Source: Labilithrix sp.
GTDB lineage: Bacteria; Myxococcota_A; Polyangia; Polyangiales; Polyangiaceae
Direction: 5' to 3'
DNA: 14,968 bases
Assembly (NCBI GenBank): GCA_019637235.1
Contig: JAHBVZ010000182.1
Coordinates: 1-14,968, forward strand
Position 1 is the stretch's first letter. Every line of letters begins with the position of its first letter. The position numbers and the translations under genes are program-made. Under the pieces are notes generated by a model. It did not search any database. It was not told the origin of the DNA and worked only from the letters and a program-made list of their open reading frames with translations. Positions 4,958 through 5,800 of this stretch are shown here, piece after piece.

Positions 4958-5800
4958 AGAACGATCCGACCGACCCTCCGAACGCGCCTCACGACGACGC
5001 CGGTGCGCTCGACGAGCTCGTGCGCGCGACGCGAAGCCGTGGGCCGAGCCCGGAGGCGTTGCGGCGCATGTCGAAGCAGCTGATCGCCGCCGGCGCGCTC
5101 CAGGCGCCGTCGCCTTCCGAGGCCCCTGCTGCCGGCGCGCGCCAGGCGAGCCGGGTCGCGGGGAACGTCGGCTCCTTCAAGGCGGGCGCGGTCGTGCTCG
5201 CCGTCACCGCCGGCGCGCTCTTCGCGTGGCGCGCGACGACCGTCTCGACCGGCGCGCCCGTCATCGAGCCGCGAGGGCCGTCGGCCGCGGAGCTCGCCGT
5301 CCCCACGACCGCGTTGCGCGAGGCGACCGAGCCGCGCTCCGCGCTCCCCGAGACGCCTTCGACCGAGGCCGCCGTCGCCACGGTCTCGATCGACGCCCTG
5401 CCGTCGGCGCGGCTCCGCGCGCGGCGTCGTCCGCGGACGCGCCGGCGCGCAACGCGTCGCCAGCGCATCAGGCGAGAAGCGCCTGCGGCGCCGGGCGCTG
5501 ATCGTGCGGCAGGCGCAAGACGCGCTCGCCTCGAACCCGGAGCGCGCGCTGGCGCTCGCGGACGAGCACGCGCGCCTCTTCCCGAGCGGCGAGCTCATGC
5601 AGGAGCGCGAGGTGGTCGCCGCCTCGGCGCTCGCGAAGCTCGGTCGCCGGGACGAGGCCCTCGTCCGAGCCCGCGCCCTCGTCCGTCGGTTCCCGCGCAC
5701 GCCGTACGTCGCCCACCTGGAGAAGGCCCTCGGCCAGCCCCTCTCCGCCGCGGCACCGCCGGGCGAGGCTCCGAGCTCCAGGTCCCCGTCGCAGCCATGA
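4954..5800 (+). CDS. Putative membrane-anchored anti-sigma factor cognate to the ECF sigma. Its reading frame appears interrupted: the N-terminal part is in the frame of 4954, the C-terminal helical domain is in the frame of 5504, and the switch falls within about 5400-5503. Either a frameshift or sequencing error, or a pseudogene.
   Basis: ATG at 4954 overlaps the sigma stop (ATGA). The N-terminal part 'MKNDPTDPP...' carries one TM helix, 'GAVVLAVTAGALFAW', and runs on to '...ATVSIDALPSA'. Past about 5410 this frame turns into Arg/Pro/Gly garbage, yet it stays open until 7089. Frame +1 (ORF 5504..5800) has about 95% GC3 and a sensible helical sequence, 'ALALADEHARLFPSGELMQEREVVAASALAKLGRRDEALVRARALVRRFPRTPYVAHLEKAL'. 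It ends with TGA at 5798-5800, overlapping the next ATG at 5797. Confidence 0.5.

Follow-up and report, generated by a model that had tools for sequence, protein, structure and literature searches.

The locus analysed here raises the question of why the coding signal of a gene directly downstream of an ECF sigma factor gene passes from one reading frame to another, and whether this break belongs to the organism or to its assembled sequence. The analysis covers a stretch of 14,968 nucleotides of Labilithrix sp. (assembly GCA_019637235.1, contig JAHBVZ010000182.1), here called the window, and follows up an earlier note that had been made from the sequence alone.

Gene content and order of the locus

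The GC content of the window is 72%. Frames are designated by position p, frame 1 being that in which p modulo 3 equals 1; the sigma gene is in the frame in which p modulo 3 equals 2. The following features frame the break:

154 to 2928, + strand: gene for a 924-aa protein similar to the major vault protein, MVP (Pfam MVP_shoulder, 1.9e-13; Vault_3, 7e-7)
2984 to 3054, + strand: tRNA gene (Rfam RF00005, 45.6 bits), located between the vault-like gene and a gene for a 368-aa protein
4414 to 4441, + strand: putative ECF-type promoter, TGTGAAC-N17-CGTC, proposed from reading the sequence
4484 to 4957, + strand: gene for a 157-aa ECF sigma factor (Pfam and NCBIfam matches), with p modulo 3 equal to 2, ATG at 4484, and TGA at 4955 to 4957
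4954 to 5408, + strand: residues 1 to 152 of the anti-sigma-like protein, frame 1, GC3 of 0.93
5498 to 5800, + strand: C-terminal TPR-like helical domain and tail of the same protein, residues ~182 to 281, frame 2, TGA at 5798 to 5800
5836 to 7089, + strand: gene for a 417-aa Cys-rich lipoprotein, MXAN_6577-like/Stig1-like, frame 1 (Pfam Stig1, NCBIfam C_rich_MXAN6577)
10973 to 12793, + strand: gene for an IgGFc_binding-domain protein (match, 7.6e-90), which extends the module in the window

The sigma protein matches Pfam Sigma70_r2, Sigma70_r4_2, and Sigma70_ECF as well as NCBIfam TIGR02937, and an exact protein look-up found it unchanged on 10 public contigs from ten samples, one of which is the MAG Labilithrix sp. 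ACE_MYX5 (GCA_019637195.1). The stop codon of the sigma gene at 4955 to 4957 overlaps the ATG at 4954 (ATGA), and the same overlap is present in relatives L001 to L010 and L013 to L015. The putative promoter motif, as read from the sequence, lies ~45 nt upstream of the sigma ATG; it aligns upstream of the orthologous sigma gene in L013 and in part in L014.

The cluster from 3248 to 12793 is conserved in the distant relatives L013 to L015, in the order ~340- to 370-aa protein, ECF sigma, TM/TPR protein, Cys-rich lipoprotein, two ~400-aa proteins, and RCC1 propeller (462 aa in the window). These three relatives (39% to 57% identity in the alignment to P0001, a homologue of the anti-sigma-like protein) have the same arrangement, including the 4-nt overlap between the sigma gene and the gene that follows it. 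The locus is best read as an ordinary three-part module of an ECF sigma factor, a coupled 281-aa single-pass membrane protein, and a Cys-rich lipoprotein. The myxobacterial vault-protein-like gene at 154 to 2928 is kept in L002 to L005.

Divergence along the locus is mosaic. Between 3900 and 5400, only 1 to 4 differences separate the window from L001 to L005 and L007, and elsewhere these strains differ from it at 2 to 17 positions per 100 nt. This near-identical 1.5-kb stretch runs from the last part of the 368-aa gene through the sigma gene and into the anti-sigma-like gene, of which it takes in the N-terminal half. The pattern suggests recent recombination or a sweep, or else unusually strong constraint.

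The frame break as read in the window

Frame 1 is free of stop codons from 4357 to 7089, and the anti-sigma-like ORF in it starts at the ATG at 4954. Its translation is plausible up to ...VSIDALPSA (~5409), including the hydrophobic helix FKAGAVVLAVTAGALFAW, and beyond ~5410 it reads RLRARRRPRTRRRATRR... The GC3 of frame 1 is 0.93 over 4954 to 5406 and 0.60 when the frame is continued over 5410 to 5796. Frame 2 has a GC3 of 0.93 over 5498 to 5797, translates as ...LIVRQAQDALASNPERALALADEHARLFPSGELMQEREVV..., and terminates at the TGA at 5798 to 5800, which overlaps an ATG at 5797 in frame 1. Translation and GC3 thus confirmed both halves described in the earlier note: an N-terminal part with one TM helix, which starts at 4954 and whose frame remains open into the next gene after the coding signal is lost near 5410, and a C-terminal domain with high GC3 in a shifted frame, which ends at a TGA overlapping an ATG. 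Within 5400 to 5470, where third positions are GC-rich in all three frames, GC3 gave no location for the shift, which was resolved only by the relatives.

Since the lipoprotein gene also lies in frame 1, no stop separates it from the broken upstream ORF, and the two read as one 711-aa fusion. The earlier note had foreseen a spurious fusion of ~900 aa from gene callers; frame 1 would give one of 711 to 910 aa with the lipoprotein. The lipoprotein itself has a signal peptide and a lipobox-like LFAGC, and two in-frame ATGs, at 5797 and 5836, could serve as its start. In L006, gene callers assigned 430 aa to the lipoprotein, whereas the other relatives have a call of 417 aa; in L001 to L004, L007, and L013 to L015, the 417-aa call begins 25 to 40 nt past the upstream stop. 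In addition, a 1-nt intergenic indel at 5813 relative to L001 puts the ATG at 5797 out of frame there. Because these calls and the indel disfavor the ATG at 5797, translation probably starts at the ATG at 5836 (MHRHLAGRRVKGGLFLLTCALAAWLFAGC...), and the TGA/ATG overlap at 5797 to 5800 is probably incidental.

A single gene in all relatives

A homologue search with the conceptual fusion of the two window halves (the repaired protein) as the query yielded 13 homologues, P0001 to P0013, all of them single proteins (249 to 309 aa; 38% to 88% identity; 89% to 100% query coverage). In these proteins, three residues never vary (L149 and P150, both in the LPSA motif, and E180), and L183 hardly does; the four residues flank the break of the window. 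A 25-mer scan added contig L012 to the ten sigma-identical contigs. The junction is reached by nine of those ten and by L012, and all 10 carry one intact ORF, which is 281 aa long wherever the whole gene is present on the contig. The two halves are therefore one gene that needs a frame change here, as the earlier note had claimed. Database searches found no protein matching the read-through fusion or a stand-alone C-terminal ORF, an exact look-up of the 711-aa fusion gave no match, and intact relatives were all that a shared 25-mer retrieved from genomes and metagenomes.

The possibility that the sequence encodes two genes, the second of which starts at the GTG at 5504, was considered in light of these homologues. 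Frame 2 is open from ~5084, and GTG 5504 is the first possible start in it, but its product would have no signal peptide for a domain that normally lies beyond a TM helix. Homologue alignment, which the earlier note had named as its own refutation test, revealed a separate C-terminal ORF (GTG 5504) in none of the homologues, which refutes the two-gene reading.

One member of the family is itself irregular. P0005, from an ENA metagenome contig of 1,821 nt, ends in ...FPRTSPTWRRPSVNR, an out-of-frame reading of the conserved FPRTPYVAHLEKA; judged by its sequence, it represents a further case in which a member of the anti-sigma-like family is frameshifted or truncated in a metagenome assembly.

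Anatomy of the 90-nt patch

The nearest relative, L006, is a Logan assembly of SRR17732044 and is 99.5% identical to the window over positions 3507 to 8495 (~5 kb). Outside positions 5408 to 5497, the two sequences differ by 14 substitutions and no indels in ~4,900 nt. Inside these 90 nt, there are seven one-base indels and 4 of the total of 18 substitutions, with a net gain of 1 nt. At the background rate between the window and L006, ~0.26 differences would be expected in 90 nt, whereas 11 were seen (Poisson P, ~6e-15), and chance clustering of the 11 changes is excluded. Compared with L006, the patch shows the following changes: (i) a C is missing at 5408; (ii) GG is replaced by AA at 5451 to 5452; (iii) two additional bases are present around 5462 to 5467; (iv) C is replaced by A at 5467 and G by A at 5470; (v) an A is added at 5477/5478 and a T at 5484; and (vi) an A is missing at 5495 and a T at 5497.

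The distance between shared anchors is 138 nt in the window and 137 nt in each of the nine relatives measured, and the whole gene is 847 nt long in the window against 846 nt in relatives; a length change that is not divisible by 3, as here, would be expected of a frameshift pseudogene. The intact 137-nt form reads GTCGGCCGCGG...GCCGGCCTCGGGCGAGAGCG(C/T)CGCGGCGCCGGAGCTGCTGATCG, and the window form reads CGCCAGCGCATCAGGCGAGAAGCGCCTGCGGCGCCGGGCGCTGATCG. Contig L012 has the same gap pattern in the patch as L006. Although the strains diverge by ~4% elsewhere, the patch is nearly invariant in the relatives (at most a few SNPs), and none of the seven indels occurs in any of the ten relatives that reach the junction. 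The suggestion in the earlier note of one indel within a GC homopolymer tract does not describe this pattern: the seven 1-nt indels are scattered and accompanied by four substitutions, and the longest homopolymer run in the patch is 3 nt.

As a result of these changes, the ancestral peptide is scattered in the window over frames 1, 3, 2, 3, 1, and 2:

5408 to 5497, + strand: window-specific anomalous patch, net +1 nt relative to L006
up to 5408, + strand: IDALPSA, frame 1
5409 to 5465, + strand: ancestral linker residues AAPRAASSADAPARNASPA, readable in frame 3 only
5468 to 5476, + strand: SGE, frame 2
5478 to 5483, + strand: SA, frame 3
5485 to 5493, + strand: AAP, frame 1
from 5498, + strand: LIVRQAQ..., frame 2

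The frame 3 peptide is identical at 18 of 19 positions to the AAPRAASSADAPARGASPA of the relatives. The patch corresponds to residues 153 to 182 of the 281-aa protein; outside it, the window protein equals the L006 protein save for S121L, and the C-terminal 99 residues (L006 residues 183 to 281) are 100% identical. On this reading of the letters, the patch carries the ancestral sequence with noise added and does not represent a coherent alternative allele. Nowhere in the 12.5-kb locus of the intact relatives is the GC content higher than in this segment (92% over 60 nt, 89% to 90% over 90 nt). All other genes in the window have the lengths seen in relatives, and none of them is frameshifted; the remaining indels relative to the ~96%-identical strains are all either intergenic or in-frame.

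The locus resembles the frameshift artefacts and pseudogenes of draft genomes and MAGs, in which a length change not divisible by 3 interrupts what is a single ORF in the relatives. Unlike the usual frameshift pseudogene, with one or two indels, the window has seven indels and four substitutions in 90 nt.

Programmed frameshifting, which the earlier note had listed as the less likely cause, can be rejected, and the same evidence bears on transcriptional slippage. All homologues, including the 99.5%-identical L006, have one uninterrupted ORF, and the patch contains no slippery run, its longest homopolymer being 3 nt, and does not stand out from shuffles in its DNA structure (z of ~0). At gathering thresholds, Rfam gave no match at the patch, the tRNA at 2984 to 3054 being the only one found, and at least five shifts would be needed to restore the ancestral peptide. 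A functional frame change in any form, including the two-gene arrangement with its open frame 2, is left with a negligible probability.

A quasi-palindrome was also considered, as the G-to-A change at 5470 and the added T at 5484 by eye complete a CAGGCG/CGCCTG stem of the kind expected from a template switch. DNA folding gave no support to such a hairpin-templated origin: the window patch is no stabler than the L006 patch, and both have a z of ~0.

Origin of the patch

The feature is most likely not biological. We consider the local consensus of the source assembly to be in error at the patch, through either sequencing or assembly, with a probability of roughly 0.7, because the patch is found in the window only, comprises multiple events, is confined to 90 nt, and sits on the GC peak. 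Insertions, deletions, and substitutions are mixed in it, and ~12% of its positions are altered; 11 events of mixed type in 90 nt resemble raw long-read error. Coverage, base-calling, and polishing tend to fail at extreme GC. The consensus at this GC-richest stretch was probably left at raw-read quality, a candidate route being an unpolished piece of long-read sequence or a gap that long reads filled where short reads had dropped out, and the noisy patch would then produce the net +1 shift and the apparent 711-aa fusion ORF. The frame break, the single ORF of all relatives, the list of differences, their restriction to 90 nt, and the match to the GC peak are observations; from them we infer that errors, rather than mutations, underlie the differences. 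Among the three causes offered in the earlier note, a sequencing error is the one best supported, although not as the single homopolymer indel in which it had been framed. The rest of the window is clean, which excludes a generally noisy assembly and means that a special local failure must be assumed. Several of the changes go to A or T, the usual mutational direction in GC-rich genomes, and this would count against an error.

These last points would be expected if the lesion were real, that is, if a strain-specific burst of mutation, for example, by error-prone repair synthesis at the GC-rich linker or GC peak, had frameshifted the gene. The frame break is present in the sequence of an otherwise clean window, the patch alters the net length by a number not divisible by 3, and the substitutions are G to A or C to A, the direction expected of mutation in GC-rich DNA. 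However, 11 independent-looking events in 90 nt, compared with 14 in ~4,900 nt, are not explained by any ordinary process of mutation. The remainder of the gene is also undecayed, down to the identity of its C-terminal 99 residues with those of L006, none of the indels recurs in the relatives reaching the junction, and a technical cause would account for the position on the GC maximum. We therefore regard a real burst as unlikely, at about one chance in five.

Far less probable still is that recombination or gene conversion brought in the patch from a paralogue or a divergent allele, or that it arose in a hypervariable or diversity-generating retroelement (DGR)-like region. The mosaic divergence, with near-identity at 3900 to 5400 and a rise downstream relative to the ~96%-identical strains, implies that recombination occurs at the locus, but the patch does not keep to one frame by itself, so that no intact donor allele can have carried this sequence. 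As for gene conversion, the window holds no second copy of the patch, and blastn-short gave only chance matches of at most 16 nt. Several of the differences involve A, as in DGR-like variation, but no reverse transcriptase domain was found among the window ORFs, and 7 of the 11 changes are indels; DGRs are not known to make indels. A hypervariable region is also at odds with the near-invariance of the patch among the other strains. A local error in the assembled sequence thus remains the preferred reading.

The anti-sigma-like protein

An AlphaFold (AF2) model was built for P0001 with the 13-sequence alignment. It predicts two N-terminal helices (residues 15 to 28 and 33 to 45; the 10-residue blocks covering them average pLDDT values of 57 to 83) and a TM helix at residues 74 to 94 (nt 5173 to 5235), with the hydrophobic sequence FKAGAVVLAVTAGA..FAW. 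An Ala/Pro/Ser/Thr-rich linker follows up to the conserved ...SIDALPSA, and the model is disordered at residues 95 to 172. The predicted helical domain covers residues 173 to 259, with helices at 173 to 193, 195 to 208, 215 to 228, 232 to 245, and 251 to 259, and the 10-residue blocks over residues 181 to 260 average pLDDT values of 88 to 98. The model thus places a single TM helix between a short N-terminus, presumably cytoplasmic, and a C-terminal domain, presumably extracytoplasmic.

The C-terminal domain appears to have a stacked helix-turn-helix fold of the TPR type. The top Foldseek matches of the modeled domain were BamD, the TPR domain of YbgF, Fis1, and MamA (probability, 1.0; E, 0.01 to 0.2), and Pfam TPR_14 was found below threshold in 9 of the 13 family members. 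The domain resembles the TPR domains of BamD and YbgF (CpoB), with an rmsd of 2.0 to 2.4 Å over ~80 residues and 19% to 26% identity; with weak Foldseek E values (at least 0.01; 0.01 to 0.1 for these two proteins) and no Pfam threshold reached, this is a likeness of fold and not of family or function.

No anti-sigma domain (ASD) family, such as the class I 3- to 4-helix ASD/ZAS, RskA, or RseA_N, was recognized by Pfam or NCBIfam in the window fragment or the 13 homologues, and the protein has no significant sequence relative in the PDB. The label "anti-sigma factor" used in the earlier note consequently draws on gene order, start/stop overlap, and topology and not on a matched anti-sigma domain family. 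The gene is adjacent to the ECF sigma gene and translationally coupled to it through the 4-nt overlap, in a conserved gene order. From gene order, start/stop coupling, and the predicted topology, it is a reasonable inference that the protein is the presumed anti-sigma of the module.

Comparison with known anti-sigma factors

Like the genes of RseA, RsiW, and Myxococcus xanthus DdvA, the gene lies directly downstream of an ECF sigma gene, here with a 4-nt ATGA overlap. The predicted architecture is also that of single-pass anti-sigma factors: a lone TM helix separates a cytoplasmic N-terminus of ~70 aa from a flexible linker, which leads to a helical module of the TPR type in the periplasm. Periplasmic TPRs are a feature of DdvA as well (PMC11506125). 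Unlike RseA, RsiW, and DdvA, the window protein has no zinc motif and no match to an ASD in Pfam or NCBIfam, and instead shows two N-terminal helices predicted with moderate confidence. Its periplasmic part of ~85 aa is minimal, unlike the ~900-aa TPR-CHAT part of DdvA.

In M. xanthus, DdvA truncations without the periplasmic domain are unstable and are degraded through RseP (PMC11506125). Were the lesion real, release of the sigma factor would therefore be possible in the window strain but not certain.

Consequences for annotation and for the module

Gene callers would emit a spurious fusion of 711 to 910 aa, or two orphan fragments, in place of the 281-aa membrane regulator that all related genomes encode. 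The proper annotation is one frameshifted CDS, or a repair following resequencing. More widely, error-like patches can hide at spots of extreme GC in otherwise clean assemblies.

Should the lesion be real, the product of the ATG at 4954 would consist of residues 1 to 152, ~130 out-of-frame residues rich in Arg, Pro, and Ala, and the whole lipoprotein (711 aa). The periplasmic TPR-like sensor would be lost, and the start of its first helix, including the invariant E180, would be destroyed. By analogy with the truncated DdvA (PMC11506125), the remaining stub could be cleaved and the sigma factor released; alternatively, the extension of junk and lipoprotein could block cleavage and lock the sigma factor off. 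The statement in the earlier note that a lesion would deregulate the sigma factor is accordingly too firm, as the sigma-proximal N-terminus and the TM helix are intact and the outcome depends on proteolysis. It is unlikely that a real cluster of changes has detached the TPR sensor and fused the stub in frame to the lipoprotein, with the module either constitutively on or locked off. If so, it would be an ordinary inactivating lesion in one strain, one that has disabled the sensor of a module (ECF sigma, TPR-bearing membrane protein, Cys-rich lipoprotein, and RCC1 propeller) conserved in Labilithrix-like myxobacteria.
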